From: Sporomusaceae bacterium
GTDB lineage: Bacteria > Bacillota > Negativicutes > Acidaminococcales > JAJUGR01
DNA: 64,000 bases
Assembly: GCA_029265905.1 (NCBI GenBank)
Contig: JAJUGR010000008.1
Span: forward strand, 12,194-76,193
Reading direction: 5' to 3'
The position numbers and the translations under genes are program-made. Each line of letters opens with the position of its first letter. Position 1 is the first letter of the stretch. Positions 7,389 to 35,220 of the stretch are shown here, one piece after another. The notes beneath the pieces are model-generated. The model was given only the letters and a program-made list of their open reading frames with translations. It did not search any database and was not told the DNA's origin.

Positions 7389-8486
7389 GTGATGAAAATT
7401 CAAGAGATTCAAATCGGCAAGGTCAGCATTCCTTTGAAAAAGCCATTTAAAACTGCGTTGCGTCAGGTGAATTCGGCGGAAGACATTATTGTGAAGGTGA
7501 TAGCGGACAGCGGCGAAGTCGGGTTTGGCAACGCGCCCCCGACGGCCGTGATCACCGGCGACAGCCAGGAGGCGATTGTTGGCGCGATTCGCGGCACCAT
7601 TGGCCCGAAGCTGATCGGGATGGAAATCGACAACCTGGAAGGGATCATGAGCGCGATCGATACGTCGATGCTGCATAACAGTTCCGCCAAAGCGGCGCTG
7701 GACATTGCGGTTTACGACTTGTTCGGCAAGCTGCACGGCATTCCGGTGTATAAGCTGTTCGGCGGCTATTCACAGACGATAACGACGGATTTAACGATCA
7801 GTGTCAATTCGCCCGAGGAGATGGTACGCGATTCCCTCGAGGCGCTCGCCGAAGGCTACACGACCTTGAAAATCAAAGTCGGCACCGATGCCGAGCTGGA
7901 TATCCAGCGAGTGCGGGCGATCCGCGACGCGGTCGGCGATGACGTCGAGATTCGCCTTGACGCCAATCAAGGCTGGCTGCCCAAAGAGGCGGTGCGGACG
8001 ATCCGGAAGTTTGAAGACATGGGTCTGCGCATTGAATTGATCGAGCAGCCGGTCAAGGCGCACGACTTTGAAGGGCTCAAATTCGTTACGGACAACGTTG
8101 ACACGGACATTATGGCTGACGAAGCGGCGTTCGGCCCGTATGAAGTGTTCAAGCTGCTCTCGATGTCGGCGTGCGACTTGATCAACATAAAACTGATGAA
8201 AGCCGGCGGGCTGCACAATGCGCTCAAAATCGCCAGCCTGGCGGAAACAGTGGGCGTTCAGTGCATGATGGGCTGCATGCTGGAGAGCAAAATCGGCATC
8301 ACGGCCGCGGCCAGCCTTGCTGCCGGCAAAAAAATCGTGACCAAGACGGACCTGGATGCGGCGGTGTTGCTGGCGGAAGATCCAATTGTCGGCGGCGTTG
8401 CTTTCCACAAAAACCAGCTGCTTGTCCCGGACGCGCCTGGTTTTGGCATCACGGACGTGCTTGGCTGGCAGGAAATCCGCGCCTGA
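7389..8486 (+). CDS. dipeptide epimerase (L-Ala-D/L-Glu epimerase-like, enolase superfamily)
   Basis: 365 aa. The MR/MLE-type barrel shows LKIKVG, EIRLDANQGW, LIEQPV and DEAA motifs in the order expected for YkfB/YcjG-type epimerases. GAAGGAG RBS. Confidence 0.85.
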   Translation: MMKIQEIQIGKVSIPLKKPFKTALRQVNSAEDIIVKVIADSGEVGFGNAPPTAVITGDSQEAIVGAIRGTIGPKLIGMEIDNLEGIMSAIDTSMLHNSSAKAALDIAVYDLFGKLHGIPVYKLFGGYSQTITTDLTISVNSPEEMVRDSLEALAEGYTTLKIKVGTDAELDIQRVRAIRDAVGDDVEIRLDANQGWLPKEAVRTIRKFEDMGLRIELIEQPVKAHDFEGLKFVTDNVDTDIMADEAAFGPYEVFKLLSMSACDLINIKLMKAGGLHNALKIASLAETVGVQCMMGCMLESKIGITAAASLAAGKKIVTKTDLDAAVLLAEDPIVGGVAFHKNQLLVPDAPGFGITDVLGWQEIRA

Positions 8487-12130: not shown

Positions 12131-12207
12131 TTAATGAACTTGGCAAGCGAGACCGCACTGCTGCCTGTTGAATTTTTTGGCAAGCTTTGAGACAAGGGGA
12201 TGGGGAA

Positions 12208-13545
12208 ATGGCGACGATGAACGGCGGGAAGCGATGGCTCATTGCGGCAATGGGGACGCTGCTGCAGATGGCGCTCGGCACCGTGTATGCCTGGAGCTTC
12301 TTCCAGCAACCGGTCATGGCACTGGGCAACTGGTCAAATGCGCAGGTGTCTTGGGCGTTTAGCCTGGCAATCTTTTTTCTCGGCATTGCGGCCGCTTGGG
12401 GCGGGATCAAGCTTCCCGCCATAGGGCCGCGCAAACTGGCGATGTCAGGCGGCTTTCTGTTTGCCTGCGGCTATTTTATCACGGCGTATGCGCTGACGGC
12501 CAAAAGCCTGCCGTTGCTTTATGCCGGCTACGGCGTCGTCGGCGGCATCGGGCTGGGGCTGGGCTATGTGACGCCGGTATCGACGGTTGCCAAATGGTTT
12601 CCGGATAAAAAAGGCTTGGTTACCGGCCTGGTCGTCATGGGGTTTGGCTTTGGCGCTCTGGTCATGGCCAAGGTGCTTGCCCCCTTCTTGCTGTCGCTAT
12701 GCGGCGGCAACCTCGGTTTGGTCTTTGCGTCGGTTGGTGCTGTCATGCTGCTTGTTACCTTGCCGTCCGGCTTTTGCTTGGTCAATCCGCCGTCAGGCTT
12801 TGCGCCGGTTGGCGACCGGGCGCAGCGGGCGGCGAAACCGCAAGCTCTGCCGGCGCCGGCGACCGCCGCGCAATGCCTTGCTTCCGGCCGCTTTGCCATG
12901 ATGTGGAGCGTTTTCTTTTTCAACATTACGGCCGGAATCATGTTCATAGGCTTTCAATCGCCGCTGCTGCAGGATTTGATGAAAAAATCGCTTGACCCGT
13001 TGTCTTTGCGTGACCCGCAGGTGGTCGCCACGCTCGCTGGGTACGGGGCGACGCTGATCGCCGTCAGTTCAATCTTCAACGGCGTTGGACGGTTTTTTTG
13101 GGGCGGGCTGTCTGATCGGATTGGCCGGGTCCAGGCCTTTAGGCTGATTTTAGGCTCGCAGCTGGCTGTTTTTGCCGCCCTGCTGTTTGTGGACAGCCCT
13201 ATCGTCTTCGGGGGGCTGGTTTGCTACATCCTGCTTTGCTACGGCGGTGGTTTTGGCGCCATGCCGTCATTTATCCTGGACACGTTCGGCGAAAAGCTGA
13301 TGCCGGTTGCCTACGGGGCCGTGCTGACGGCTTGGGGCTGCGGCGGCATCGTCGGCCCGCAGCTGGTGGCCTACCTGAAAGACCATTATCCGCAAAACGC
13401 CGCCCACTATGCTTTCCTGTCGGCGGCGGGTTTTTTGCTGATCGGTTTGCTCATTTCCTTTGTGTTGGACAATAAGCAGTTCATTTCGGGCGGCAAATCC
13501 GCAACTGCTTCGGCGCGCTGGCAAACAGAGACGCTGAAGCGGTGA
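12208..13545 (+). CDS. MFS transporter, oxalate/formate antiporter (OFA)-like
   Basis: ~445 aa with about 12 predicted TM segments. The N-terminus [22 protein letters not shown] matches the OFA-family signature region as I remember it. Start set to ATG 12208 after AAGGGGA. Confidence 0.8.
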
Positions 13546-13582
13546 CTGTGGAATCAATAATATTGGAAAGGGAGTATTGCAG

Positions 13583-15250
13583 ATGAAAAGCGATGTTGAA
13601 ATTGCCCAAGCGGCGGAGATGAAGCCCGTTGCACAGGTTGCCGCAGAACTTGGCTTGCTGGAGGACGATATTGAGTTGTTCGGCAAATACAAAGCCAAGG
13701 TTTCGTTAGCTGCCTGGGAGCGGCTGAAAGACCGCGCGGACGGCAAGGTTGTCCTGGTTAGCGCTATTAATCCGACGCCGGCGGGCGAGGGGAAGACGAC
13801 CAATACGGTGGGGCTTGGCGATGCGTTGCGGCGATTAGGAAAGAAAGTTGTCATCGCGCTGCGCGAACCTTCGCTCGGACCGTGTTTTGGCGTGAAGGGG
13901 GGCGCCGCGGGCGGGGGCTATGCCCAGGTAGTGCCGATGGAAGACATCAACCTGCATTTCACCGGCGACATTCATGCCGTGACGACCGCCAACAACTTGT
14001 TGGCCGCGGTCATCGACAACCATATCCACCATGGAAATTTGTTGGGGATTGATCCGCGGCGGATAACCTGGCGCCGCGTTATGGATTTGAATGAACGGGC
14101 GCTGCGGCATATTGTCCTCGGCCTCGGTGGAAAGGCGAACGGCATTCCCCGGGAGGGTGGCTTTGACATTTCCGTCGCCTCTGAGCTGATGGCTATTCTC
14201 TGCCTGGCGAGCGACCTGGATGACATGAAGGCGCGGATTAGCCGCATCATCGTTGCCTACACGTACGGCAACGCGCCAGTTACGGTGGCCGACCTGAATG
14301 TGGCTGGGGCGATTACGCTCTTGTTCAAGGATGCGATCAAGCCCAATTTAGTTCAGACGCTGGAAAATACGCCAGCCTTTGTTCATGGCGGACCATTTGC
14401 CAACATCGCGCACGGCTGCAACAGCGTGATGGCCACGAAGTTTGCCCTGAAATTAGCGGATGTTGTTGTGACGGAAGCGGGTTTTGGCGCTGACCTGGGG
14501 GCGGAGAAATTTTTTGATATCAAGTGCCGGTTTTCCGGCCTGAAGCCGGAGGCTGTTGTGCTGGTTGCGACGATTCGCGCGCTCAAATCACACGGCGGCG
14601 TTGAAAAAGGCAATTTAGGGAAAGAAAATATGCCGGCATTGGAAAAAGGCATGGCCAACCTCGTCAAGCATATTGAGAATATCGGGAAATTTGGCCTGCC
14701 GGCCGTAGTCGCGATTAATGCCTTCCCTACCGATACAGAACAGGAATTGGCTTGGGTGGAAGCGGCCTGCGGGAAGCTGGGCGTCAGGGTGGCTTTGTCC
14801 AAGGTGTGGGAAAAAGGCGGCGAGGGCGGAAAAGCGTTGGCGCAGGCTGTGCTGGCCGCGCTCGATGAGCCGAAAGAATTTCGCTATTTGTATGACGAAA
14901 CGCTGCCGATCAAAGAAAAAATAGCCGCGATTGCCCAAGAAATATATGGCGCCGATGGCGTTCGCTATACCCCGGCAGCCGAAAAGACAATCAAAGAGCT
15001 GACTGCCCTGGGGTACGACAAGACGCCGATTTGCATGGCCAAAACCCAGTATTCGTTCAGCGATGATCCGGCTAAGATCGGCCGGCCGCAACATTTCGAC
15101 ATTACTGTACGGGAGTTGCGCGTTTCGGCCGGCGCCGGCTTTTTGGTCGCGGTAACCGGCGACATCATGACGATGCCAGGCCTGCCGAAAAAGCCGGCCG
15201 CCGAGGTCATGGACATCGACAATAACGGGAAAATATCCGGCCTCTTTTGA
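13583..15250 (+). CDS. fhs: formate-tetrahydrofolate ligase
   Basis: 555 aa. SDVEIAQ...[10 protein letters not shown] (P-loop)...[13 protein letters not shown] are hallmark Fhs motifs. ATG at 13583 follows AAAGGGAG. Confidence 0.95.
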
Positions 15251-15274
15251 AGCAAGCGATGCTTGGCTGAGTGG

Positions 15275-15289
15275 CGGCAAATTTTGCCG
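15275..15289. promoter_or_regulatory. candidate upstream activator site (palindrome CGGCA-N5-TGCCG)
   Basis: CGGCAAATTTTGCCG lies ~130 nt upstream of the -24 element at 15417. A further half-site ATTTGCCG ends at 15310. Confidence 0.3.
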
Positions 15290-15416
15290 TTGTGGGGGAA
15301 AAATTTGCCGCATGTATTTAACGGCGTGCGGAAAAATCTGACTAATTTACAATCCTGCGCGCAGAAGGCCCTTGCTGGCAAGGGGCTTGGCGAAGATTGT
15401 GCCTGGGTCAAGGGGT

Positions 15417-15432
15417 TGGCACGTTTTTTGCA
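15417..15432 (+). promoter_or_regulatory. sigma-54 (-24/-12) promoter P2
   Basis: Exact consensus TGGCAC-gtttt-TTGCA, ~48 nt upstream of the formimidoyltransferase start. Confidence 0.8.
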
Positions 15433-15480
15433 TAAGGGTTAGGCGAGATAATCATCAGCAATAGTGAAGGGGTGGGCAGT

Positions 15481-16377
15481 GTGGCAAAATTAGTGGAGTG
15501 TGTACCGAATTTCAGCGAGGGGCGCCGGCCGGAGGTCATCGAGGCGATTACGGCGGAAGTGAAGGCAGTACCGGGCGTAAAACTGTTGGATGTAAACCCG
15601 GACCCCAGCCATAACCGCGTGGTGGTAACGTTCGTTGGCGAGCCGGAAGCGGTCAAGCTAGCCGCCTTCCGGGCCTGCAGCAAGGCGACCGAGTTAATTG
15701 ATATGGAAAAACATGAAGGCGAGCACCCGCGCATTGGTGCGACCGACGTCATTCCGTTTATTCCTGTCAAGGATGTGACAATGGAGGAATGCGTGGCTTT
15801 GGCGCAGTCGCTGGGTGAGGAGATCGCCGACAAGCTGGGGATTCCGATTTATTTGTACGAGGATGCCGCCAAAATTCCGACGCGCCGGGCATTGCCGGAT
15901 ATCCGCAAAGGACAGTATGAGGGCCTGAAGCAGGAAATCAGCAAACCGGAACGGCATCCGGATTTCGGGGCGCCCAAAATGCATCCCACTGCTGGCGCCA
16001 CGGTTGTAGGGGCCCGCCAGTTCCTGGTTGCCTTCAACATCAATCTCAGCACGAGCGATGTGCAGATCGCCAAAAAAATCGCCAGCACGATTCGGGAAGC
16101 CAAAGGCGGCTACAAATATTGCCGGGCGATGGGCGTTATGATCGAAGAACGGAACCTGGCGCAAGTTACGATCAATATGATCAATTACACCGGTACGCCG
16201 TTGCACAGGGTCTTTGAAACGGTCAAATCGGAAGCGGCCCGCTATGGGGTCAACGTGGTTGGCAGTGAAATTATCGGTTTGACGCCGCTGCAAGCGCTGC
16301 TGGATGCGGCTGACTTCTACTTGCGGCTGGAAGGGTTTGACCGCAAGCAGGTTCTGGAAGAGAACATCTACGAGTAA
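15481..16377 (+). CDS. ftcD: glutamate formimidoyltransferase
   Basis: The N-terminus AKLVECVPNFSEGRRPEVI is the signature start of the FTCD formiminotransferase domain. ~298 aa covers both FT subdomains. GTG start at 15481 lies 8 nt after GAAGGGG (15472 is an alternative). Confidence 0.9.
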   Translation: MAKLVECVPNFSEGRRPEVIEAITAEVKAVPGVKLLDVNPDPSHNRVVVTFVGEPEAVKLAAFRACSKATELIDMEKHEGEHPRIGATDVIPFIPVKDVTMEECVALAQSLGEEIADKLGIPIYLYEDAAKIPTRRALPDIRKGQYEGLKQEISKPERHPDFGAPKMHPTAGATVVGARQFLVAFNINLSTSDVQIAKKIASTIREAKGGYKYCRAMGVMIEERNLAQVTINMINYTGTPLHRVFETVKSEAARYGVNVVGSEIIGLTPLQALLDAADFYLRLEGFDRKQVLEENIYE

Positions 16378-16390
16378 GGGGAGGCAGACT

Positions 16391-17020
16391 ATGCTGGTCG
16401 AGATGACAATCAAGGAATTTCTGTCGGCGTTAAAATCGGATGCGGCCGCTCCGGGCGGCGGCAGCGCTGCAGCCTTAGCCGGAGCGGTGGGGGCTGCGCT
16501 GGCGCTGATGGTCGGAAATCTGACCCTAGGCAATTCGAAGTACCCGGAAGCGCAAGATGAGGTTGCGGCCTTGCAGCCGCAGCTAGAAGCGTGTCTGGCA
16601 AAGCTGGAACGCTATATCGACGAAGACACCGAGGCGTTCAACCGGGTAATGGACGCTTACCGCCTGCCGAAGGCGACGGAGGAAGAAAAGCAAGCCCGCA
16701 GTCAAGCCATTCAAGAAGCCTTGCAGCAAGCGGCCGTACTGCCAATGACCGTGGCGGAGACGAGTCAGGAGGTGTTGGTAATGGCGCGGCGGATGCTGGC
16801 GATCGGCAACAGCAATGCCGCCAGCGATGCGGCTGTCGCCGGGCGGATGGCGCATACGGCCATGTGGGCGGCAATTTATAATGTGCGGATCAACTTAGGC
16901 TCAATCAAGGATCAGGCGTTTGTAGCCGCGATGAAAAAGCGGATTGACGATGTCAGTGCAAAAGCGGCGGATGTTTTGGCAGCTTTGCTGACTGAAGCGG
17001 ACGGCAAAATCGGCAGTTGA
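16391..17020 (+). CDS. cyclodeaminase/cyclohydrolase-family protein (formimidoyl-THF cyclodeaminase or FchA-type methenyl-THF cyclohydrolase)
   Basis: 209-aa all-helical protein. FLSALKSDAAAPGGGSAAALAGAVGAALALMV is the conserved N-terminal motif of the FTCD C-terminal domain family. AGGGGAGG RBS. Start at 16391, not the ORF-track 16304. Confidence 0.85.
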   Translation: MLVEMTIKEFLSALKSDAAAPGGGSAAALAGAVGAALALMVGNLTLGNSKYPEAQDEVAALQPQLEACLAKLERYIDEDTEAFNRVMDAYRLPKATEEEKQARSQAIQEALQQAAVLPMTVAETSQEVLVMARRMLAIGNSNAASDAAVAGRMAHTAMWAAIYNVRINLGSIKDQAFVAAMKKRIDDVSAKAADVLAALLTEADGKIGS

Positions 17021-17085
17021 GGCGTCCGCCGGCAGGGACAAAGCGCCGCAACAAGGCCGTCTAGGGCGGAAAGCGAGGGATAGGG

Positions 17086-17688
17086 ATGAAGATCACGGTG
17101 ATTAATGAAGCGGCCGCCAGCACGTCAGTATGGTCGGGCGGAACCAGCAGGCAATACTACATTTTCCCTCCATCAGCTTCGTATGGAGAACGGAATTTTG
17201 CTTTTCGGATGAGCCTGGCAACGTCCTCCTCTGAGGCTGAGGCGCCATACAGCAACCTCGAAAACATCACGCGCCACTTGGTTATGCTCGACGGCGCGGC
17301 GCACGTTGTTCACAAGGGCCATTATGAGCTGGATATGCATCCCTATGCGGAAATCGATGTCTTTGATGGCGGGTGGGAGTCATCAGGCACGGGCAAAGTC
17401 ACGGATTTTAACCTGATGGTTGCTAAAGGGGTTCACGGCCGCATGTCGGTCATTGCCGAAGACAAGACGGTTGACTTGGGCGGCGGCTGTGAGCAGTGCT
17501 CGAAGCGCTATAATAGAACGGCATTCTTCTGCGGTTCTGGCAGCGCTTCCCTCGTTTTTTCAACCGGAGAAACCTTTCGCCTGGACAAGGGGGCCTTGCT
17601 GCTTGTGGAGGAGATGCCAGACGCTTCGCGCGTTGCGGTTGGCCTTTCCGAGGCAAAACTGGTGCGGATGGATGTTTGCTGCCATTAA
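17086..17688 (+). CDS. hutD: HutD/Ves-family protein
   Basis: 200 aa. WSGGTSRQYYIFP near the N-terminus and the overall beta-rich cupin-like pattern resemble HutD. The context next to formiminoglutamate genes supports the call. Confidence 0.6.
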   Translation: MKITVINEAAASTSVWSGGTSRQYYIFPPSASYGERNFAFRMSLATSSSEAEAPYSNLENITRHLVMLDGAAHVVHKGHYELDMHPYAEIDVFDGGWESSGTGKVTDFNLMVAKGVHGRMSVIAEDKTVDLGGGCEQCSKRYNRTAFFCGSGSASLVFSTGETFRLDKGALLLVEEMPDASRVAVGLSEAKLVRMDVCCH

Positions 17689-17807
17689 GCCCGGTGCGAA
17701 CAAAAGGAGGGGGAGCGAGCAGGGGCGTGGACGGATAGCCTGCACAACTGACGACGGACAACGATTCGGTACGCTACAGCCCAATCTAGAAAAGGACGGT
17801 GAGAATA

Positions 17808-19043
17808 ATGAAGTTCGAAATGGCTGGTTCGGTGTTGACCCTCATCTTCGATAACATTGGCACGATGACCCTGGCATCAGTACTCTTGCTCATTGGTTTC
17901 TGGGTCAAAAAGCAGGTATACGTGCTTGAGAAATTCTGCATACCGGCTCCTGTTGTTGGCGGCTTTATCTTCGTATTCATTAATTTCTTGTTCCATTTGA
18001 GCGGAACGGTGGCCTTTAAGTTTGACTCAACGTTTATGGGCGCCTTTATGCTGGCCTTTTTCACATCCGTCGGGTTGGGCACGAGCCTTAAAATTTTGCT
18101 GACCGGCGGCAAACTGCTGGTGGTTTATTGGCTGGTCAACGTCGGCGTAACGATTCTGCAGACCGGCATCGGCATCGGCCTGAGCCCGATCGCCGGCATG
18201 CATCCGGTATACGGCATCGTATCAGGGCCGGTGGCTTTGGTCGGCGGTCATGGCGGTGCGGCTGCCTACGGGCAAACGCTTGAGGCAATGGGCTTTCCCG
18301 GCGCCAGCCTAGTCGGGTTGTCAGCGGCGACGTTCGGCCTTGTTGCCGCCAGCCTGATTGGCGGGCCGCTCGGCAGACGCCTGGTTGTCGCTTATGACTT
18401 GAAACCGAGTGCTGACGAAGCTTTTGCTATCGATACCAGCGGTTATGACGAAAAGACGGCGCCAAAAGTTGACATGAATTACGCCAATACCATGAAAAAC
18501 ATCACTGCCCTGCTTGTTTCCATGACGCTGGGGTCGATCATCGTCGGCATCATCGGCAAGCAGATCGGCATGTCCATCCCGACTTATGTCGGCGCGATGT
18601 TCTTCGCCGTGCTGGTAAGAAACCTCAACGAGAAGTTCCATTTCTACGAATTCAGCATGGAGTTCAACGACAAATTAGGCGACGTTTGCTTGGGAATCTA
18701 CCTCTCCATGGCGCTCGTCACGCTCAAACTGTGGGAATTGGCTGGTTTGGCATTACCGCTTTTGATCGTGCTGGTTGTGCAGACCGTGGTGTTATTAGCC
18801 CTCACGTACTTCTTGATCTTCCGGATTCTTGGCAAGAATTACGACGCTGCGGTCATGTGCTCAGGCCTGATCGGCCATGATATCGGTTCGACGCCTACAG
18901 CGGTGGCAAACATGACGACGATCATGGACAAATACGGCCCGTCGCGCAAAGCGCTGATCATCGTTCCGATCGTGGGCGCCTTCCTCATCGACGTTTTCTA
19001 CCAGCCGTTTGTCGTGTACTGCATCAACCTTTACGGGAAATAA
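17808..19043 (+). CDS. gltS: sodium/glutamate symporter
   Basis: ~411-aa polytopic protein. Length, N-terminal LTLIFDNIGTMTLASVLLLIGFWV and the repeated GxxxG-rich helices match GltS (ESS family) as I remember it. ATG at 17808 (GTG 17799 is an alternative). Confidence 0.85.
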   Translation: MKFEMAGSVLTLIFDNIGTMTLASVLLLIGFWVKKQVYVLEKFCIPAPVVGGFIFVFINFLFHLSGTVAFKFDSTFMGAFMLAFFTSVGLGTSLKILLTGGKLLVVYWLVNVGVTILQTGIGIGLSPIAGMHPVYGIVSGPVALVGGHGGAAAYGQTLEAMGFPGASLVGLSAATFGLVAASLIGGPLGRRLVVAYDLKPSADEAFAIDTSGYDEKTAPKVDMNYANTMKNITALLVSMTLGSIIVGIIGKQIGMSIPTYVGAMFFAVLVRNLNEKFHFYEFSMEFNDKLGDVCLGIYLSMALVTLKLWELAGLALPLLIVLVVQTVVLLALTYFLIFRILGKNYDAAVMCSGLIGHDIGSTPTAVANMTTIMDKYGPSRKALIIVPIVGAFLIDVFYQPFVVYCINLYGK

Positions 19044-19095
19044 CCGGCAAATAAAAAGAAGTCCGCGAATGTGCGGACTTCTTTTTATTTGCCGG
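19044..19095. terminator. bidirectional terminator with 23-bp perfect stem
   Basis: CCGGCAAATAAAAAGAAGTCCGC (19044-19066) pairs with GCGGACTTCTTTTTATTTGCCGG (19073-19095). A/T runs lie inside the stem on both strands. It separates gltS from the convergent regulator gene. Confidence 0.8.
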
Positions 19096-19102
19096 CTGGT
19101 GA

Positions 19103-20416
19103 TCACTTATCAATTTTTTCAAATTCGATGATGCGGCTGGGGCGGCCGGTTGCGCCCACCATGCGGCTGCCGATCACGCGGCAAAAGCCGCTGGTGTCCA
19201 GACGTTCCAAAATGCGGTTCATGCGGCGCTGGCTGAGGCCGAGTAGGGCGGACAGTTCCTTGGCGGTAAAAGTGGTTTTGCCCATCTCTTCAATGAGTTC
19301 GACAAGTTGGTAGATGATGTTGACGCTCAGGCCGGACTTGACGGCCAATTCCTCCACTCCCGATTCCAGTGTTTCCACCCGCTTGCTTTGCGTACCCAGA
19401 TAGGTGATGGGATAGATGAACAGGTCTTCGTTCGCGACAAAGGCGCGGTCTCCGCCGGATTTTATCGCCTGAAACAACGCTTTTCGGGCGCCGGCATGGG
19501 CCTGGCGGATCGTGTTTCCGTAGCCGATTCCCAGGCTTACGGTGTTGAAGGTGTCGTTGCGAATATTGCTCAACAGGTCGATGTTTTTCAAATCATTTGT
19601 TTTGGCGGAAAAGACGTCTTCGGCGACAAACAGAACATAGCTTTCGTCCTTGGTTTCCAAAATGGCGGCGTTGATCCGCTCGGCGAATTCGTGGATATAG
19701 GTAAGCGTTTTAGCCTTTTCCATGATGTTTTTATATTCGTTTTCGCGGACAACGGAGTATTCTTTCGGTTCGTCAATATGAACTTGCAGGACGACCAGGT
19801 TGTTGCGCTGCGTGAACTTGAAAATGTAGTTCAGCTCGAGCTTGTGCAGGGTTTCCGCGATAATTTCGTACGTAGAGGCGATGTAGACGCTAGGCACGTT
19901 TCGTTTTCTTAATTCGACCCAGACGGAATGCAGGGCCGTCAGGCAACAGGAGACCTTCTGCTTGAGATAATACTGCTCGTGCTGGCGGACGATGCGCTCG
20001 AACTCCTGGCCCATCACGTCCCGCTGGACGCAGAACACGTTCGTTTGCTCGCTGGGAATGCCGATTTCGTCATACACGGTGTACATATCTTTTTCCGTGT
20101 AGCTGTCGATGCTGATGTTGGTAATCGAGCAGTGGTTGTGTTCGGCGATCAGGCAGGCGTACAGCAGCGCATGGATGCTGCGGGGCAAATAGTCGCTGAT
20201 GATGTCCGGATCAATGAATTTTTTGGCGGCAAAGTAAGGGGAAGTGCCAGTCAGCAAGATTGCGTCGCAGTCGTTGCTGTTGGTTTTTACCATTTGCGGC
20301 GCTTCCGTGTAGTGGCTGTAGATGCAGTTGATCGGGGTGATGCTGGGGAACTGGCTTTTGATAACGCGATTCACTTTGGCGACGATCGCCTCGTTGCCGA
20401 TGACCTTCAGGCGCAT
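19103..20416 (-). CDS. transcriptional regulator of uncertain family (GGDEF-like/PucR-CdaR-like middle domain, C-terminal HTH)
   Basis: 437 aa. The C-terminus FTAKELSALLGLSQRRMNRILERLDTSGF is a clear HTH. The central SLGIGYGNTIRQAHAGARKAL resembles the degenerate GGDEF-like domain of PucR/CdaR regulators. ATG at 20416 follows GGAGGAAA. Confidence 0.65.
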   Translation of the reverse strand: MRLKVIGNEAIVAKVNRVIKSQFPSITPINCIYSHYTEAPQMVKTNSNDCDAILLTGTSPYFAAKKFIDPDIISDYLPRSIHALLYACLIAEHNHCSITNISIDSYTEKDMYTVYDEIGIPSEQTNVFCVQRDVMGQEFERIVRQHEQYYLKQKVSCCLTALHSVWVELRKRNVPSVYIASTYEIIAETLHKLELNYIFKFTQRNNLVVLQVHIDEPKEYSVVRENEYKNIMEKAKTLTYIHEFAERINAAILETKDESYVLFVAEDVFSAKTNDLKNIDLLSNIRNDTFNTVSLGIGYGNTIRQAHAGARKALFQAIKSGGDRAFVANEDLFIYPITYLGTQSKRVETLESGVEELAVKSGLSVNIIYQLVELIEEMGKTTFTAKELSALLGLSQRRMNRILERLDTSGFCRVIGSRMVGATGRPSRIIEFEKIDK

Positions 20417-20607
20417 AGCGGTTTCCTCCACTTTTGGACAACTTTTGGCTCCTTTTTAGCTCCATTTATACGAGATATAATGACGCTGTGAAGAGACATA
20501 CTGTTCACAACTCTATGCCTAGTATTGTATCAGAAGGGGGATTGTGACGCAAAGCAACTTGTTCTTTTCACGGCAAACCGGATCATTTACAGAGGAGGGT
20601 GGATTGC

Positions 20608-21306
20608 ATGGATTTAAAGACAGTTATCAACAGCCCCGGCATGTGGCTGGCCTGCAGCCTAATGGTAATGGTGGTGATGGGGCAGTCGATCGTATTTTTG
20701 CGCGCGGCGTTTAAAGCAGCGCCCGGCATCGGCGTCAGCCGCGAACAGTGCTACACGGCCATGCGGTCTGCTGCTTACACGGCGATCGGACCGGCCTTGG
20801 GTCCGGTCATAATTCTTCTGGTGCTGATCGACACGCTGGGGGCGCCGATTGCCTGGATGCGGCTGTTGGACATCGGCGCTGCGCATACGGAACTGGTCGC
20901 CTCGACGCTGGGCGCGCAGGTGGCCGGCGTGGATTTGCGCTCGGCGGCGTTTGACTTAAAGGCGTTCAGCTATGCGCTGTGGGCCCAGGCGTTGAACAAC
21001 GTCGGCTGGATGGCGGTCACGCTCTTGGTTACGCCGAAAATGGGCGGTGCGGTATCGGCGCTCACTAAGAAAACGAATCCGCGCATGGTGGCCCTCTTGA
21101 TCGCCGGCGCAAGCTTAGGCCTGTTTTCCTTCTTGCTGGGCAACCAGCTGGTGAGCGGCAAAGCCGGCAATATTACGGCCGCCGTCGCTTCCGCCGTGGC
21201 TTTCTTGGCCATGGGGCTGGCCAGCAAAAACTACCCGCGGCTCCGCGAGTTTTCTCTGGGCTTGGCTATGGTGGTCGGTATTTTCGCCGCCCAGGCGATG
21301 CTGTAA
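20608..21306 (+). CDS. polytopic membrane protein, family not recognised (putative transporter subunit A)
   Basis: 232 aa with 5-6 hydrophobic helices. AGAGGAGGG RBS 8 nt upstream of ATG 20608. First gene of the operon divergent from the regulator. Confidence 0.65.
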   Translation: MDLKTVINSPGMWLACSLMVMVVMGQSIVFLRAAFKAAPGIGVSREQCYTAMRSAAYTAIGPALGPVIILLVLIDTLGAPIAWMRLLDIGAAHTELVASTLGAQVAGVDLRSAAFDLKAFSYALWAQALNNVGWMAVTLLVTPKMGGAVSALTKKTNPRMVALLIAGASLGLFSFLLGNQLVSGKAGNITAAVASAVAFLAMGLASKNYPRLREFSLGLAMVVGIFAAQAML

Positions 21307-21331
21307 GAACAGATTGTGAGGAGTGATCAGT

Positions 21332-22033
21332 ATGACGCCAAATGAAGCGTTTATTAAACAGTGTGTAAGAATCGGTACGATTACGTTGCTGCTGGGCATC
21401 GCGGCGAACTTTATTCCGGCGCTCTACCTGTGGTTCGGTCTTGGCGTGCACCCCCCGGTTGACGATGTGTTTAAAATCCTTGCCATTATCGCCTCGACGT
21501 ATGTGACAAGCTGGATTACACAGCCGATCACCTTTTTCCCCTTGCTTGGCACGACCGGCTCGTATGTGACCTGGCTGTCCGGCAGCGGCGCGGAAATCCG
21601 GACGCCGGCGTCCAACATGGCGCAAAAAGCCGCCGGCGTGGAGCAAGGGACGCCGGAGGGAAATGTCGTTTCGACGATCGGCGTGGCCACGTCCGTTTTT
21701 GTCTCGTTCGCAGTTGTAACGACGTTTGTTGTGGCCGGGCAATACCTGATGCCGCTGTTGCCGGCGTTTGTGAAGCAATCATTCGCCTTCCTGCTGCCGG
21801 CCGTGTTCGCCGCCGTCGTCGTGAACTTGGCGAAGGGCAACCTTGATCTGTGCGCGACGATCGTTGTGTTTGCAACGGCGACCATGTATGTGTTGAAGCA
21901 TTACGTCAAGATGCCGTCGTGGTTCGCCACCTTGTTTATTGTGATCATGGGCATTGTGTTCGGTTATATCAAGTACCGTATGACGCAGACTCCGGAGGAA
22001 AAAGCGGACGGACTCGTCGCTGAGGCCGAGTAA
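21332..22033 (+). CDS. polytopic membrane protein, family not recognised (putative transporter subunit B)
   Basis: 233 aa with about 6 hydrophobic helices. GAGGAG RBS 8 nt upstream of ATG 21332. It follows the previous gene by 25 nt. Confidence 0.65.
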   Translation: MTPNEAFIKQCVRIGTITLLLGIAANFIPALYLWFGLGVHPPVDDVFKILAIIASTYVTSWITQPITFFPLLGTTGSYVTWLSGSGAEIRTPASNMAQKAAGVEQGTPEGNVVSTIGVATSVFVSFAVVTTFVVAGQYLMPLLPAFVKQSFAFLLPAVFAAVVVNLAKGNLDLCATIVVFATATMYVLKHYVKMPSWFATLFIVIMGIVFGYIKYRMTQTPEEKADGLVAEAE

Positions 22034-22057
22034 GACGGACGAATATGACAGCAATTT

Positions 22058-22087
22058 CTTAGAGGCAGCAATCTTGCTGTCTCTAAG
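22058..22087 (+). other. intercistronic hairpin between the membrane-protein genes and the D-aminoacylase gene
   Basis: CTTAGAGGCAGCA pairs with TGCTGTCTCTAAG (13 bp, one mismatch, 4-nt loop). There is no T-run, so it is probably not a full terminator. Confidence 0.4.
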
Positions 22088-22116
22088 TCATGCAATAAAC
22101 AGTTTTATCGAGAAAG

Positions 22117-23754
22117 GTGATGAGCGACGTGTTTGATGTGAAAATTATCAACGGCCGCATTGCGGACGGCACCGGCAAGGAACTGTTTTTGGCGGACGTA
22201 GGGATTATCGGCGAGAAGATCGCGGCGATCGGCGACTTAAAGGATGAGGCGAGCAAGCAGACGGTTGACGCTGCCGGCAAGATCGTTGCGCCGGGCTTTA
22301 TCGATATGCACACCCATTCCGACTTGAGCCTGGTTTACGATCGGCGTGCGGCTTGCAAGATCCACGACGGCGTGACGACGGAGATTGTCGGCAACTGCGG
22401 AATCGGCGTGGCGCCGGTGAAAGCGGACAAAAAGCAGCTCTTGATTGACTACTTGGGCACGCGGATGATCGGCACGATTCCCGTAAAGCTGGAATTGCCA
22501 TGGGAAACTTGCCGCGAGTATTTCGAATTCGTTGAGCAGCAGCCGCCGGCCGTGAATCTCGTGCCGCTTTTGGCGCATGGCGCGGTGCGGATTGCCGCCA
22601 TGGGGTTTGACAAGCGAAAACCGACTGAAGAAGAACTGGCCGCGATGAAGGCTTATGTGGAGCAGGGCCTGGACGACGGCGTTGTCGGCCTTAGCTCCGG
22701 CCTGATTTATTTGCCGGGCGAGTACGCGGAGATACCGGAGTTTGCCGCGCTGTGCAAACTTGTGGCGGCCAGGGGCGGGATTTACACGACGCATATCCGC
22801 AACGAGAACGAAGGGATGTTTGAATCGCTCGAAGAAGCGCTGACGGTCGGCAAGGAATCCGGCGTGCCGGTGCATATTTCCCACATCAAGCTGAATTTGC
22901 CGCAGGTCTGGGGCCGGGCCGACGAAGTGCTGGCGCGCATCCAGCAGGCCAATGACGAAGGGCACGACACGACGTTTGACGTATACCCGTATACGGCCGG
23001 CTTCACGTCGCTGTCTTCGGCGCTGCCGCCCTGGGTGTTTGAAGGCGGCGTGCACAACATGATGGCGCGGCTCAAGGACGGCGAAGTGCGGGGCAAAATC
23101 ATCGCGGACATGAAGGCCGGCAGCCCGGGGCGCAAACTGTATTCGCTGGAAAACAAAATCTGGGATAAAATCGTCGTGGCGACGGTGCTGCGCGACGACA
23201 GCCGCCACATCGAGGGGATGAGCATTCAGGCGATTGCCGACGCGCGCGGCTATGACGATCCGTATGCGCTGGTGATTGATCTGCTGGTGGAGCAGGACGG
23301 CCGCGTGCTGATCGTTCACCACACGATGGCGGAAGCTGACCTGCAGAAGTTCCTCTGCCACCCGGCGTCGATCGTCATCTCCGACGGCATGGGGCTGGCG
23401 ACGGACGGAATTTTGTCGGGCGGCAAGCCGCATCCGCGCACATTCGGTTCGCGGGCGCGCGTGTTCGCCCGCTACGTCAAAGAGCTTGGCCTGCTGAGCT
23501 ACGAAGAGGCGGTGAAGAAAATGACCTATCTGCCGGCCAAGCGCCTGGGGCTGCGCGAACGGGGGCAACTGGCGGAAGGGTTCTTTGCCGACGTCGTCGT
23601 CATCAATCCGGCAACGGTTAAGGATTGCGCCACGTACGATGAACCAAAGCAGTACTCGGCAGGGTTTGACCAGGTGTTTGTCAACGGGCAGCTGGTTTTG
23701 GACGAAGGCCGGCAATTGGATGTCTATCCGGGCAAGGTCGTGTTGAAAAAATGA
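22117..23754 (+). CDS. N-acyl-D-amino-acid deacylase (D-aminoacylase family amidohydrolase)
   Basis: 545 aa. FDVKIINGRIADGTG...VAPGFIDMHTHSD (HxH metal site) plus the later motifs GIYTTHIRNE, VHISHIK and the C-terminal beta-sandwich extension are typical of D-aminoacylases. Confidence 0.88.
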   Translation: MMSDVFDVKIINGRIADGTGKELFLADVGIIGEKIAAIGDLKDEASKQTVDAAGKIVAPGFIDMHTHSDLSLVYDRRAACKIHDGVTTEIVGNCGIGVAPVKADKKQLLIDYLGTRMIGTIPVKLELPWETCREYFEFVEQQPPAVNLVPLLAHGAVRIAAMGFDKRKPTEEELAAMKAYVEQGLDDGVVGLSSGLIYLPGEYAEIPEFAALCKLVAARGGIYTTHIRNENEGMFESLEEALTVGKESGVPVHISHIKLNLPQVWGRADEVLARIQQANDEGHDTTFDVYPYTAGFTSLSSALPPWVFEGGVHNMMARLKDGEVRGKIIADMKAGSPGRKLYSLENKIWDKIVVATVLRDDSRHIEGMSIQAIADARGYDDPYALVIDLLVEQDGRVLIVHHTMAEADLQKFLCHPASIVISDGMGLATDGILSGGKPHPRTFGSRARVFARYVKELGLLSYEEAVKKMTYLPAKRLGLRERGQLAEGFFADVVVINPATVKDCATYDEPKQYSAGFDQVFVNGQLVLDEGRQLDVYPGKVVLKK

Positions 23755-23805
23755 GCATGCTTCGCCCTGGCGCTGCTTGCAGGGCCTGAAGCGTGCGGAC
23801 AAAGG

Positions 23806-23839
23806 AAGGCGCGTTGAAACGTACGTTTCAACGCGCCTT
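23806..23839. terminator. bidirectional terminator between D-aminoacylase and the convergent serine hydrolase gene
   Basis: AAGGCGCGTTGAAACG (23806-23821) pairs with CGTTTCAACGCGCCTT (23824-23839), followed by TGGTTTTT. Confidence 0.75.
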
Positions 23840-23845
23840 TGGTTT

Positions 23846-24619
23846 TTACTGCCTGCGCAGCGCATTATACAATTTAGCGGAAACGGAAGCGATGAAATCG
23901 CTGGAATATTCATGGTCGTCCGTGCTTGTGTAGAAGCTGATCAAAATGGGGTCGCGCCCGTCCTGGATGACGCCGACGTCGCACAGCACCTCGTCGAGCT
24001 CGCCGACCTTGTGCAGCACCGGCGTTTGCATGTAGCGCGGTATTTCATCCTGGAAAATGGTGTTGGCCAGGTGGTCTTTCAGCTGGCGGGCCTGCTTTTT
24101 GCTGATGTATTTTTCATTGTAAATGGTTTCAAACACTTTGCCCATTTCATAAGGCGTGGTGACGCTGTGGTAGCTGTAGCGTTCGAACGCCTTTTCGTCG
24201 TGGATCCTCGTTTTGCTCAGACGCAGGTCTTTTTCGACGCGGAGAAAGGCGTCCTGCTTAACCTCGTCGGCTTCGTCGAGCAGTTCCTTGAAGGTCTCGT
24301 TGTCGCTGACCCTGATCATCGGCTCGATGGCTTCTTCATATTCGGCCTGCTTGGCCGGCGTGGCTTTCGGATACAGGTATTTGTAGGTGGCGAGCGCTAC
24401 GACCAGCTTGCTGGTCGAGGCGGCGGGGAAGACTTCATCCTGGTTGAACTTGTAGGTTTTCCCCGTTTTTAAGTTTTTGGCATAGACGCCTACGCGTCCG
24501 TTAAATTGCTGCAAGTCTTTGGTGATTTCTTTTTCCAAGGCCTTTGGCGCCGCCCAAACGGTCGCGCCGGAACTGAGGACGAAGAACATAGCAACAGCGG
24601 CGATGATTTTTTTGAACAT
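23846..24619 (-). CDS. secreted class-A beta-lactamase-like serine hydrolase
   Basis: Signal peptide MFKKIIAAVAMFFVLSSGATVWA. S-x-x-K nucleophile motif (AASTSK), SDN (RVSDNE) and a late KVG (HKVGE) triad in class-A order. ATG at 24619 follows GGGGGA. The ORF-track start at 24877 is not RBS-supported. Confidence 0.8.
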   Translation of the reverse strand: MFKKIIAAVAMFFVLSSGATVWAAPKALEKEITKDLQQFNGRVGVYAKNLKTGKTYKFNQDEVFPAASTSKLVVALATYKYLYPKATPAKQAEYEEAIEPMIRVSDNETFKELLDEADEVKQDAFLRVEKDLRLSKTRIHDEKAFERYSYHSVTTPYEMGKVFETIYNEKYISKKQARQLKDHLANTIFQDEIPRYMQTPVLHKVGELDEVLCDVGVIQDGRDPILISFYTSTDDHEYSSDFIASVSAKLYNALRRQ

Positions 24620-27982: not shown

Positions 27983-28705
27983 ATGGCAAAGCGCAAGGCC
28001 GCGCCAGCCGTGGCAACCGTGCAGTTTGAGGGGCTCGAACTGGAAGTGGTGCGCCGGGCGGTGAAAAACCTGCGCATCAGCGTTTATCCGCCCGACGGGC
28101 GCGTGCGGGTCGTCGTTCCGCTGCGGGCCGGCGAAGCCTTTTGGCAGGCGGCCGTCCGTTCGAAGCTGGAATGGATCCGTCAAAAGCAGCAGTTATTGGC
28201 GCACGGGCAAAGCGACGCGCACACGCCGCTTTATTGCTCCGGCGAGACGCACTTTTTTCTCGGCCATCCCTACTGCCTGCAGGTTCAAAACCACGCGGGC
28301 CCGGCGAAGGTCTGCATTCGCAACGAGCGGGTGCTTGACTTTTTTGTCCGGGAAGGCTGGGCCGACGCGCAGCGGGAAAAGGCTTTTTTGGGCTGGTACC
28401 GGGAGCAGCTGCGCGTCCTGGTGCCGCTCCTGTTAGACAAGTGGCAGCCGGTGCTCGGCGTTGCGGCCCGCGAGTGGGGGATCAAGCGCATGAAAACGCG
28501 CTGGGGCACGTGCAATGTCACGGCCCGGCGCATCTGGCTCAACCTGGAACTGGCGAAAAAACCGTTCGCCTGTCTGGAATATGTCGTCGTCCACGAGCTC
28601 GTTCACTTATTGGAGCGCTCGCACAACGCCCGCTTTTGGGGGCTGATGGACCGGTTTTTGCCCGACTGGCGGGAAAGCAAAGCGCAATTGAATAAAAGAA
28701 GTTAA
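27983..28705 (+). CDS. YgjP/DUF45-type (M48-like, SprT-like) zinc metallohydrolase
   Basis: 240 aa. RWGTC...the Zn motif VVHELVHLLERSHNARFW (HExxH) in the typical C-terminal position of the YgjP family. ATG at 27983 follows AAGGGG. Confidence 0.85.
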   Translation: MAKRKAAPAVATVQFEGLELEVVRRAVKNLRISVYPPDGRVRVVVPLRAGEAFWQAAVRSKLEWIRQKQQLLAHGQSDAHTPLYCSGETHFFLGHPYCLQVQNHAGPAKVCIRNERVLDFFVREGWADAQREKAFLGWYREQLRVLVPLLLDKWQPVLGVAAREWGIKRMKTRWGTCNVTARRIWLNLELAKKPFACLEYVVVHELVHLLERSHNARFWGLMDRFLPDWRESKAQLNKRS

Positions 28706-28720
28706 TTTGGAGGTGATGCG

Positions 28721-29572
28721 GTGAAAAAAAATGTTCTGACTGTGCTTGAGCAGGAAATGCCTAATTTGACCGCAGCGCAGCGGCAAATAGCAGATTACAT
28801 TTTAAAAAATGCGGTAGAAGTTTCTTTTCTTACCCTTGATCAGTTGTCAGGTCTTGTCGGAACAAGCACGACTACTGTGATGCGCCTCACCTTTAACCTT
28901 GGCTATAGCGGGTATGCGGAATTTCAGAAAGATTTGCAGGAATTGCTGCGTAACCGAGTGGCCCCAGGGACACGGCTTGAAGCAAATTTGAAAGCGTTGG
29001 AGCGGAAGAGTTTGCTGGTGAAGTGCGCCGAAAAACAGATTGAAAATATTCAAGAAACGTTGGACTACCTTTCAGATGAATCGGTTGCCCGCTCCGTTGA
29101 AATGATCATGCAAGCAAGAAAAATTTATGTTGTAGGGGTGAGAACGTCCTTTACGGCTGCCTATTACTTATATCAAGGCTTGACTCGCATCCTGGATAAT
29201 TGCGAACTGCTTGAAATCGACACGGGCGCACAAATTGATCGCATCTTAAATATAACGCCGCAGGACTTGGTGATTGCTTTCAGTTTTCCAAGGTATGCAC
29301 GCAGCATAGTTGAGCAGGTCAAACGGATAACAGAACAACGTGGGGCGAAAGTAATGCTAATTACGGATAGCTATTCCTGTCCGTTGGTGAACGTTGCGGA
29401 CGTAACGTTGCCTTGCGGCTGTGGCAGTTTGGCTTACCACAATTCCATGTCGGGCGCGATATTGGTTTCCGATTTTCTGATTACATCTATTACTGTGCAG
29501 GATCCTGTGAATACTAAAAAAAGATTGGAAGAATCGGAAGTGCTTTTAAAAAGCATGAATTACCACGTTTAG
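28721..29572 (+). CDS. RpiR/MurR-family transcriptional regulator (HTH + SIS domain)
   Basis: N-terminal HTH_6 (LTAAQRQIADYILKN...LTLDQLSGLVGTSTTTVMRL) and a C-terminal SIS fold (IYVVGVRTSFTAAYYL...). GTG start follows GGAGGTGA. First gene of the AT-richer block. Confidence 0.88.
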   Translation: MKKNVLTVLEQEMPNLTAAQRQIADYILKNAVEVSFLTLDQLSGLVGTSTTTVMRLTFNLGYSGYAEFQKDLQELLRNRVAPGTRLEANLKALERKSLLVKCAEKQIENIQETLDYLSDESVARSVEMIMQARKIYVVGVRTSFTAAYYLYQGLTRILDNCELLEIDTGAQIDRILNITPQDLVIAFSFPRYARSIVEQVKRITEQRGAKVMLITDSYSCPLVNVADVTLPCGCGSLAYHNSMSGAILVSDFLITSITVQDPVNTKKRLEESEVLLKSMNYHV

Positions 29573-29601
29573 TTACTGAACAACAATAGCTGGATAGTGT
29601 T

Positions 29602-29643
29602 AAGACACTCCTTGTCATTTGGCGAGGAGTGTCTTTTTTTTTT
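29602..29643 (+). terminator. rho-independent terminator after the RpiR-family gene
   Basis: AAGACACTCCT (29602-29612) pairs with AGGAGTGTCTT (29625-29635), followed by T9. Confidence 0.8.
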
Positions 29644-29655
29644 GCGCGATCGGGA

Positions 29656-29684
29656 TTGACTATTTAAAATAGTCGATATATACT
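29656..29684 (+). promoter_or_regulatory. sigma-A promoter with embedded 17-nt perfect palindrome (candidate operator)
   Basis: TTGACT (29656-29661), 17-nt spacer, TATACT (29679-29684). The palindrome GACTATTTaAAATAGTC (29658-29674) spans the -35 and spacer. Confidence 0.55.
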
Positions 29685-29932
29685 GAAGGTAGTAAATAAT
29701 ACGACTAAAAATAAAAAAGTAAGAAATAAAACTAACAAAGAAAAAGGGGTGCCAGTACCGTTTAGGATTAAGCAAGAACATCTGCAGGGATAAGGACATA
29801 AAAGAGTGGGTTTTGCCAAGCTTTTAGCCGGCTCGTGCGTATATTCTGCGGGTGATGATCATAAATAGAAAATGGTGTGTTGGATTTTAAAAGTCAAATT
29901 TAGTTGCGTTATTAATGAGAGGGGATTGAAAC

Positions 29933-30490
29933 ATGCGGGAACAAATATTGGCCTTACTACCGGAGATTAACTGGGTGAAAGATGAAAAAATTCGGGAGGC
30001 GGTTATCGCAACCCACATTGATGCTTTAACAGAAGGCGGGTGGAAGCCGGAAGACATGGACCGAATCCCTTTTGCGCTGGCGTTTCCAAATTGTCCTGCT
30101 TCCTATTTGCGCCATATTAAGGCGGTTACACATATGTGCCGCAGCATACTGGAAGAATACAATTCGATTTATCAAGGGCAAGGCGATTTTACCTTAGACC
30201 ATGATCGACTGATAGCCGGCGCTTTGCTGCATGACATCGGTAAACTGGTGGAATGGAAGGAAGGCGCTGATGGCAAGTTCGGCAAATCAGAGACCGGCAA
30301 ATTAATGCGGCATCCTTTGTCGGGGACGGTCATCGCGATGCGTAACGGCATCAGCTATGAAATTGGACACATTATTGCCTATCATGCCCATGAAGGGGAT
30401 GATGCCAAACGAAGCCCAGAGGCGGTGATTGTCAACAAGGTGGATATGATGAACTTTGACAGCATCCGTTCAACGCTGGGTTATTTGTAA
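29933..30490 (+). CDS. HD-domain metal-dependent phosphohydrolase (small, stand-alone)
   Basis: 185 aa. H...HD...H...H...D ligand series (HIKAVTH, LLHDIGK, MRHPLSG, AYHAHEGD, VNKVD). GAGAGGGG RBS. Confidence 0.8.
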   Translation: MREQILALLPEINWVKDEKIREAVIATHIDALTEGGWKPEDMDRIPFALAFPNCPASYLRHIKAVTHMCRSILEEYNSIYQGQGDFTLDHDRLIAGALLHDIGKLVEWKEGADGKFGKSETGKLMRHPLSGTVIAMRNGISYEIGHIIAYHAHEGDDAKRSPEAVIVNKVDMMNFDSIRSTLGYL

Positions 30491-30535
30491 GCTGATGTTT
30501 TCTGTAAGAGATAAGCGCGTAGTGGAGGTTTAACA

Positions 30536-35211: not shown

Positions 35212-35220
35212 TCACTTGGG

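Follow-up and report, generated by a model that had tools for sequence, protein, structure and literature searches.

Escherichia coli takes up and hydrolyzes p-aminobenzoyl-glutamate by means of the AbgT-AbgAB system, Geobacillus kaustophilus converts D- to L-amino acids by a pathway of NSAR/OSBS and an M20 L-desuccinylase, and LrgAB/PftAB is a two-subunit pyruvate carrier under the control of LytST. We know of no dedicated carrier that has been assigned to the NSAR/OSBS-M20 pathway or to the DgcN/DgcA pathway of N-acetyl-D-Glu racemisation, and the natural role of D-aminoacylases, like the bacterial uptake of N-acyl-D-amino acids, is largely obscure. D-aminoacylases have mainly been studied as industrial catalysts (PMC12149444). 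Here, we describe a locus at positions 19,103 to 24,619 of a 64,000-nucleotide stretch (the window) of contig JAJUGR010000008.1 from a Sporomusaceae bacterium, which offers a testable answer in the form of a conserved cassette of regulator, putative carrier and deacylase that is extended in relatives by D-serine ammonia-lyase or racemases.

In the window, the genes of two polytopic membrane proteins, A (20608..21306, + strand; 232 amino acids) and B (21332..22033, + strand; 233 amino acids), are followed by the open reading frame (ORF) of a D-aminoacylase-like amidohydrolase (22117..23754, + strand; 545 amino acids; relatives 1M7J and 3GIP). This operon diverges from a regulator gene (19103..20416, - strand; 437 amino acids from the ATG, with the ORF reaching a GTG at 20431), and the gene of a secreted serine hydrolase (23846..24619, - strand) converges on its terminator. 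On balance, we lean towards the view that the regulator, a heteromeric A-B importer for an N-blocked D-amino acid and the cytoplasmic deacylase constitute a self-contained uptake-and-hydrolysis cassette. The dedicated, divergently transcribed regulator would probably control the A-B-deacylase operon upon encountering substrate or product. A and B would form an obligate heteromeric secondary transporter that imports an anionic N-blocked D-amino acid, be it an N-acyl-D-amino acid or possibly an Xaa-D-Xaa dipeptide, and the Zn-dependent D-aminoacylase would remove the acyl group in the cytoplasm to yield the free D-amino acid. The starting point is what we observe, namely the gene content, a strict pairing of A and B, an enrichment of amide hydrolases and CoA-transferases next to the pair, the D-acylase motifs and a regulator that is conserved along with the pair. 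As catabolism, the scheme is nothing unusual; what is new is the putative carrier, which consists of a protein with a domain of unknown function (DUF) strictly paired with a family that has no profile model, neither having a detectable solved relative.

The locus shares with AbgT-AbgAB that a carrier for an N-acylated amino acid would be encoded together with a cytoplasmic amidohydrolase, which in the E. coli system is of the M20 family. However, AbgT is a single polypeptide of ~510-530 amino acids, whereas the pair in the window consists of two unrelated subunits of ~230 amino acids without Pfam similarity to AbgT/DcuC. LrgAB/PftAB resembles the proposed A-B carrier in that two small polytopic proteins together form a heteromeric carrier, which transports an organic anion, and LytS/LytTR genes lie next to one subclade of the pair that is associated with a CoA-transferase. 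It differs in the sizes of its subunits (~130+230 amino acids as compared to ~230+230) and in its partner enzymes, and neither A nor B has an LrgA/LrgB Pfam match. As to the enzyme, the D-aminoacylase of Alcaligenes faecalis DA1 (1M7J) and the N-acyl-D-glutamate deacylase Bb3285 of Bordetella (3GIP/3GIQ) belong to the same amidohydrolase subgroup and share with it the ligands and the YPY and HPR motifs. The enzyme of the window, at 545 amino acids as compared to 484, carries ~60 extra residues in the alpha/beta insertion domain, and no alignable counterpart of the specificity residue (Leu298 in Alcaligenes, Arg295 in Bordetella) could be placed in it. The known Alcaligenes and Bordetella enzymes are not described with a membrane pair of this kind, and a literature search on D-aminoacylases and transporters found no description of such a system. 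The NSAR/OSBS and DgcN/DgcA pathways are reminiscent of Megasphaera-type relatives of the locus, which combine an NSAR/OSBS-type enzyme of the enolase superfamily (MR_MLE) with M20, D-aminoacylase and alanine racemase, and the window has retained an MR_MLE racemase/epimerase gene (7389..8486, + strand; Pfam MR_MLE_N/C) 10.6 kb away. They differ in that no succinyl- or acetyltransferase gene is seen in the cassette, which fits a salvage of external N-acyl amino acids rather than an internal stereo-inversion.

Protein A is a member of the Pfam family DUF5058 (PF16481), which it matches with 176.6 bits (E 7e-52, gathering score 28.2) over profile positions 1-222 of 222. The function of this family is not known, and we found no paper on DUF5058/PF16481 in the searchable literature collection. 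It is polytopic by hydropathy, and in our DUF5058 alignment (A3) residues N8, W13, G61-P62, G78, P80, W83, G90 and E95 are invariant; R53 and E214 are also among the conserved residues of A. Protein B, likewise polytopic by hydropathy, has no match in Pfam or NCBIfam, the same is true of 66 diverse members of its family, and it is not matched by the DUF5058 profile either. The first-pass annotation had found both membrane proteins unplaceable, which thus applies to B, but not to A. A word-indexed search returned only 53 relatives of B, mostly from Negativicutes. When 1.84 billion cluster representatives were searched exhaustively with a profile, 862 were matched at E<=0.001, 564 of them at E<=1e-10; the best 150 of the 862 matches are 89-279 amino acids long, with no apparent fusions. 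B has a strongly conserved Gly/Pro-rich segment and a charged motif (P-A-x-x-M-A-Q-K-A-A-G-V-E-x-G-T-P-E-G, residues 92-110), both situated in a less hydrophobic stretch between transmembrane helices, such as carriers typically show at their substrate or ion sites. The conserved residues of B include R90, Q98, E104 and the GTPEG of the motif. An AlphaFold2 monomer model of B from the 66 sequences reached a pLDDT of 92.3; a run with 20 sequences (64.5) was not used. A and B are not diverged paralogues according to BLASTP and hhalign of the family profiles (probability 2.4%), and hhalign of half-profiles was negative for an internal duplication in either protein.

The evidence that A and B belong together comes from their gene neighbourhoods. 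Exact look-up together with scans of genomes and metagenomes gave us 112 loci; the genome scan with a narrow alignment (A1) had yielded only 16 loci, hence the use of a DUF5058 alignment as the seed for the metagenome scan. Cultivable bacteria with the pair include Megasphaera cerevisiae DSM 20462, Enterocloster lavalensis KCTC 15153 and [Clostridium] asparagiforme DSM 15981. For the neighbourhood statistics, we took those loci among L001-L104 that had a DUF5058 call, 97 in number, and dereplicated them at 85% identity into 43 clusters. B lies directly downstream of DUF5058 in all 38 of the 38 evaluable clusters (34 by ORF calling and 4 by tblastn rescue). Apparent DUF5058 loci without B turned out upon tblastn rescue to be artefacts of the ORF caller, with the exception of L083, whose cluster mates have B. 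Many loci (L016, L019, L020, L033-L050, L057 and L063; e.g., L019:8514-10660) carry tandem diverged DUF5058 paralogues (~40-50% identical), then one B gene. Two copies followed by one B occur in 6/27 well-covered clusters, which may point to alternative A subunits or to a variant with three subunits.

The pair is closely associated with genes for hydrolases, which account for 32/133 genes within two positions of it as compared to 0/123 at four or more positions (Fisher p 1e-10). The co-occurrence with amidohydrolases that had been suggested as a check in the first-pass annotation is thus clearly present. D-aminoacylase-like Amidohydro_3 enzymes adjoin the pair in 9/27 well-covered clusters and M20 deacylases/peptidases in 11/27, and altogether five unrelated hydrolase families are found beside it (Amidohydro_3, M20, Amidase, CocE/NonD S15 and ATC_hydrolase). 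Since its partners come from at least five hydrolase families as well as from the family-III CoA-transferases, the pair is a general module with variable specificity and is not specific to D-aminoacylases. The minimal cassettes, such as L012, L026, L053 and L062, consist of A, B and Amidohydro_3 alone, joined in some cases by the regulator, and have no other membrane protein. No ATPase or binding-protein gene accompanies them, for which reason we envisage a secondary carrier. The partner enzymes have no signal peptides, and their substrates are charged amides or carboxylates, which do not get across the membrane without help. This, and the fact that the minimal cassettes have the pair as their sole membrane component, argues for a carrier role. 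The two-subunit importer proposed earlier from the sequence therefore finds support in the pairing, in the enrichment of hydrolases and in the lack of any known family, while transport itself, its direction, its energy coupling, the substrate and the ligand of the regulator are what we infer from this.

In Enterocloster/[Clostridium] asparagiforme (L004/L021-L024; e.g., L004:5347-10145), the pair is part of a longer operon, in which cyclic nucleotide (cNMP)-binding/Crp regulators, a 219-amino-acid protein without a Pfam hit, a Gate-domain membrane protein and an ATC hydrolase precede A, B and an M20 amidohydrolase (476 amino acids, TIGR01891). This arrangement resembles a conversion of thiazoline-carboxylate or N-carbamoyl-amino acids.

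A further link to transport comes from the subclade of the pair in which a family-III CoA-transferase takes the place of the hydrolase, and next to which a LytS-type kinase and a LytTR regulator are encoded. The CoA-transferase directly 3′ of the pair in five of these loci (L076/79/80/94/99) is 50-57% identical to the enzyme of L111, a locus that a search with the regulator family brought up. This locus has, in one row, genes for an M20 hydrolase, an AbgT-family transporter, a member of this regulator family and the CoA-transferase, with AbgT in place of A and B. The occurrence of the same CoA-transferase beside AbgT in the one case and beside A/B in the others would be the classic signature of a non-orthologous transporter displacement. 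In L079, L080, L094, L099 and L103 (e.g., L079:6071-10627), the pair is flanked by a 5TMR-LYT/LytS-type kinase, the LytTR regulator and the family-III CoA-transferase, and OAD_beta, biotin ligase and malonate-decarboxylase alpha genes also lie in the vicinity in L079. This suggests the uptake of a carboxylate that is then activated by CoA transfer.

The amidohydrolase of the window is predicted to be a cytoplasmic, Zn-dependent enzyme similar to those that deacylate N-acyl-D-amino acids. It matches the D-aminoacylase 1M7J with an E of 3.5e-86 and the N-acyl-D-Glu deacylase 3GIP with 8e-85, gives 92 bits with the broad Pfam family Amidohydro_3 (cut-off 29.7), and has no signal peptide; judging from its relatives, translation probably starts at 22120 or 22129. 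The metal-ligand motifs correspond one by one between the window enzyme and 1M7J (HTHSD/HTHDD, GNCGI/GNCGI, THIRNE/THMRDE, ISHIK/ISHHK and ISDG/GSDG), and the HxH, the Cys of GNCG, the two His and the Asp are kept in eight cassette enzymes. The alpha-carboxylate in the c-site of D-acylases is bound by the Tyr of YPY and a conserved Arg of HPR, and the alpha/beta insertion domain sets their specificity (PMC12149444). Both carboxylate-binding motifs are found in the deacylase, YPY within DVYPYTAG and HPR within KPHPRTFG, such that the earlier call of a D-aminoacylase is supported, with every metal and carboxylate ligand in place.

The neighbours of related deacylases likewise point to D-amino acids, a theme that had been recognized in the first-pass annotation. 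In L105 and L106, where the deacylase is 77% and B 75-79% identical to those of the window, the deacylase is followed 3′ in the same orientation by a D-serine ammonia-lyase (two equivalog models, 708 bits vs 246 and 700 vs 368), and in L025, L026, L031 and L052 by an enzyme with the domains Ala_racemase_N and D-ser_dehydrat. Two unrelated types of D-Ser/D-Thr-degrading enzymes thus lie 3′ of the deacylase, which makes a free beta-hydroxy-D-amino acid, D-serine or another, the most likely product in these relatives. Furthermore, the Megasphaera-type loci encode an NSAR/OSBS-type MR_MLE enzyme (TIGR01928, 348 bits vs 200.65), two M20 deacylases and an alanine racemase, and dipeptide-epimerase-like MR_MLE enzymes are present in related loci as well.

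Several observations weigh against an importer coupled to a D-aminoacylase. Profile searches found no solved relative of either A or B, and a Foldseek search with the monomer model of B found no match to a solved transporter or other PDB entry (best E 2.2, TM score 0.17). MFS or Gate-domain membrane proteins occur in some loci and could be the real importer. The hydrolase labels behind the neighbourhood statistics were assigned by BLAST to a reference set drawn from the neighbours, which biases them towards nearby finds. The window itself has no D-serine lyase, and its deacylase stays under the cut-off of the NCBIfam model PRK09061 (222 vs 340 bits). PF07969 enzymes moreover have diverse substrates, as exemplified by the carbohydrate de-N-acetylase 9KB1, and metallo bile-salt hydrolases also belong to this family (PMC13081902). 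We do not regard the window enzyme as a bile-salt hydrolase, since those enzymes form a YtcJ-like PF07969 subgroup with a carboxylated Lys, are secreted and carry an extra C-terminal domain (PMC13081902).

This raises the question whether the cassette acts on another substrate, be it cell-wall di- or tripeptides with D-amino acids, N-acetylated amino sugars or sugar acids, or other amides, such that D-aminoacylase would merely be the nearest relative. The solved relatives include the carbohydrate de-N-acetylase 9KB1/9KB3 (E 2e-62), the deacylase falls below the NCBIfam subfamily cut-off, and D-acylases of its clade are said, in work of Cummings et al. from 2009, to cleave L-Xaa-D-Xaa dipeptides as well. 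In addition, L-Ala-D/L-Glu epimerases are the nearest match of the window's MR_MLE enzyme, the closest relatives have the gene of a secreted DD-peptidase-like hydrolase convergent with the operon, and the ~60 extra residues lie in the alpha/beta insertion domain, where specificity is set (PMC12149444). However, the Tyr of YPY and the Arg of HPR, which recognize the alpha-carboxylate of D-amino acids, are conserved (PMC12149444), and the two unrelated D-Ser/D-Thr-degrading enzyme types follow orthologous or homologous deacylases. On these grounds, a free D-amino acid is very probably a product, whatever the N-substituent may be, and we regard a different class of substrate as unlikely.

Even if the substrate is correctly assigned, the pair might work outward and export the product of the enzyme (a D-amino acid, an organic acid or the product of the CoA-transferase), or exchange substrate for product. 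Genomic association is silent on direction, and both D-amino acids and short organic acids may be toxic to the cell or arise as end products of fermentation. LytS/LytTR systems, which adjoin the CoA-transferase subclade, control carboxylate carriers such as LrgAB/PftAB that run in both directions. However, the charged amides on which the cytoplasmic partner enzymes act have to enter the cell somehow, and the minimal cassettes offer no other carrier. Where present, D-serine ammonia-lyase and aminotransferases consume the D-amino acid inside the cell, and AbgT, with which the pair is swapped, belongs to an importer family. Export is quite improbable on this evidence. Slightly more improbable yet is that the pair is no carrier at all, but signals to the regulator as a membrane sensor or anchor, serves as a scaffold for the enzymes or is itself a membrane enzyme acting on the same compounds, since the lack of similarity to known transporters and the frequent proximity of regulators (the GGDEF-like/helix-turn-helix family, LysR, LytS/LytTR) are countered by a regulator family that occurs without the pair, by a pair that occurs with unrelated regulators and so has no fixed sensing partner, by its co-transcription with the enzymes and not with the regulator, and by an architecture of two polytopic subunits of ~230 amino acids with Gly/Pro-rich intramembrane motifs and no soluble domain, which fits a carrier better.

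We therefore return to the pair as an importer. No similarity of A or B to described transporter families was found in Pfam, NCBIfam or solved structures (e.g., AbgT/DcuC, LrgA/LrgB, MFS), and a match to a well-characterised family, which the first-pass annotation had named as speaking against its importer, was seen for neither protein. Tentatively, and with somewhat less confidence than in the cassette as such, we propose that DUF5058 and B represent a new family of heteromeric secondary carriers with a fold unlike that of solved transporters, which would be dedicated to the import of N-blocked amino acids and of organic anions related to them in gut and soil Firmicutes, including Negativicutes, Oscillospiraceae and Lachnospiraceae. 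Its specificity might be readable from the adjacent enzyme, that is, D-acylase, M20, amidase, CocE/NonD, ATC hydrolase or CoA-transferase. If this is true, DUF5058 and B define a new type of two-subunit carrier whose substrates are predictable from the gene neighbourhood. In any case, a falsifiable role is thereby proposed for one Pfam DUF and for another, unmodelled family that comprises at least 862 sequence clusters; the two are common in Clostridia of the human gut.

With respect to the regulator, its architecture is as had been described from the sequence, with ~200 N-terminal amino acids that match no family, a degenerate GGDEF-like middle and a C-terminal winged helix-turn-helix. The middle matches GGDEF_GdpP with 25.4 bits, under the cut-off of 30, and GIGYG replaces GGDEF; among 21 homologues, 9 match GGDEF_GdpP (best 2.4e-10) and 13 match HTH_11. 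PucR-family domains were not matched by any of these 21 family members. A diguanylate cyclase (GGDEF) or a regulator of the PucR-CdaR type was rejected in view of the degenerate GIGYG, the sub-threshold GGDEF_GdpP match and the merely generic helix-turn-helix matches. Homologues with 23-38% identity adjoin the pair in 14/27 well-covered dereplicated clusters. Distant members adjoin other operons of amino-acid or organic-acid catabolism (L109, L110, L112 and L111), which encode a tryptophanase-like lyase with an SNF carrier and RidA, an alpha/beta hydrolase with PTA, POR and acetate kinase, or AbgT, M20 and CoA-transferase (L111). The family (alignment A4) is thus broader than the cassette and comprises undescribed regulators of catabolism or amino-acid fermentation in Clostridia and Negativicutes. 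The divergent promoter and putative operator region between the regulator gene and that of A (20417..20607) has a conserved counterpart in L107 and a largely conserved one in L105. It contains an imperfect palindrome, TGTGAAGAG-N5-CTGTTCACA, at 20487-20509, which is a candidate operator, as well as a -10-like box, GATATAAT, and the ribosome-binding site of A (GAGGAGG, 9 nt 5′ of its start).

Some parts of the window do not appear to belong to the cassette. This is best seen by comparison with the sister contig L107, which has 86% DNA identity across the cassette and 92.6% protein identity in the deacylase. There, the MR_MLE gene lies 94 nt from the regulator gene, whereas in the window the two are 10.6 kb apart (8485-19104). 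The intervening block carries genes for a histidine kinase fused to a solute-binding protein (SBP), a sigma-54 response regulator, an MFS carrier, FTHFS (formate-tetrahydrofolate ligase), glutamate formiminotransferase, cyclodeaminase, HutD and GltS. Neither L107, in other respects collinear with the window at 76-90% DNA identity, nor any other locus has this block. It is thus a recent indel and looks like a mobile or recently acquired formiminoglutamate/glutamate module, such that the proposed feeding of D-amino-acid derivatives into the neighbouring glutamate metabolism finds no support. At its edge, between the convergent GltS and regulator genes, the inserted block has a perfect 20-bp hairpin with A- and T-run flanks (19046-19093), a bidirectional terminator of the textbook kind. 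The MR_MLE gene itself (7389-8486) directly adjoins the regulator gene in L107/L108 and is for this reason a probable displaced member of the cluster. Its best NCBIfam matches, L-Ala-D/L-Glu epimerase (264 bits) and the N-acetyl-D-Glu racemase DgcA (169 bits), are both below the cut-off.

The class-A-like serine hydrolase has a signal peptide, the motifs STSK, SDN and KVG, a 98.6-bit match to the broad Pfam family Beta-lactamase2, and 3CJM, a "putative beta-lactamase", as its best solved relative. It does not qualify as a class A beta-lactamase, since KVG replaces KTG and the 71 bits with NCBIfam bla_class_A are below the curated cut-off of 200. Its membership in the system, as had been suggested, is doubtful. 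The gene is kept only in the sister contigs L107/L108, and in the next-closest relatives the D-serine ammonia-lyase takes its position. The GC-rich 16-bp hairpin terminator (23805..23840) that it has in common with the operon is followed by GGTTTTT, which makes for a good T-tract on the + strand, while that on the - strand is weak.

The features noted in the first-pass annotation, i.e., the regulator, the two membrane protein genes, a hairpin, the deacylase, the terminator and the hydrolase, were all found at the positions that it gave; its observation is as a whole confirmed and its interpretation partly supported. The intercistronic RNA hairpin between B and the deacylase (22058..22087, + strand; 13-bp stem) lies in a region that folds at -25.5 kcal/mol as compared to -15.9 +/- 3.2 for shuffles (z = -3.0). 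Its stem is identical in L107, and it is absent in L105, L106, L001, L011 and L018; elsewhere, the spacers between A-B and the enzyme are 9-117 nt long and unstructured. With no U-tract and no conservation past the sister contig, it does not qualify as a conserved attenuator or riboswitch or as a feature of the system at large. It is lineage-specific and probably an mRNA stabiliser, a processing site or a weak attenuator.

Two more segments of the window are missing from L107. One of them, at 5272-6748, carries an isocitrate/isopropylmalate dehydrogenase-like gene. In the other, at 28682-35217, the G+C content drops to 0.47-0.49 as compared to ~0.56 elsewhere, which suggests a horizontally acquired island.

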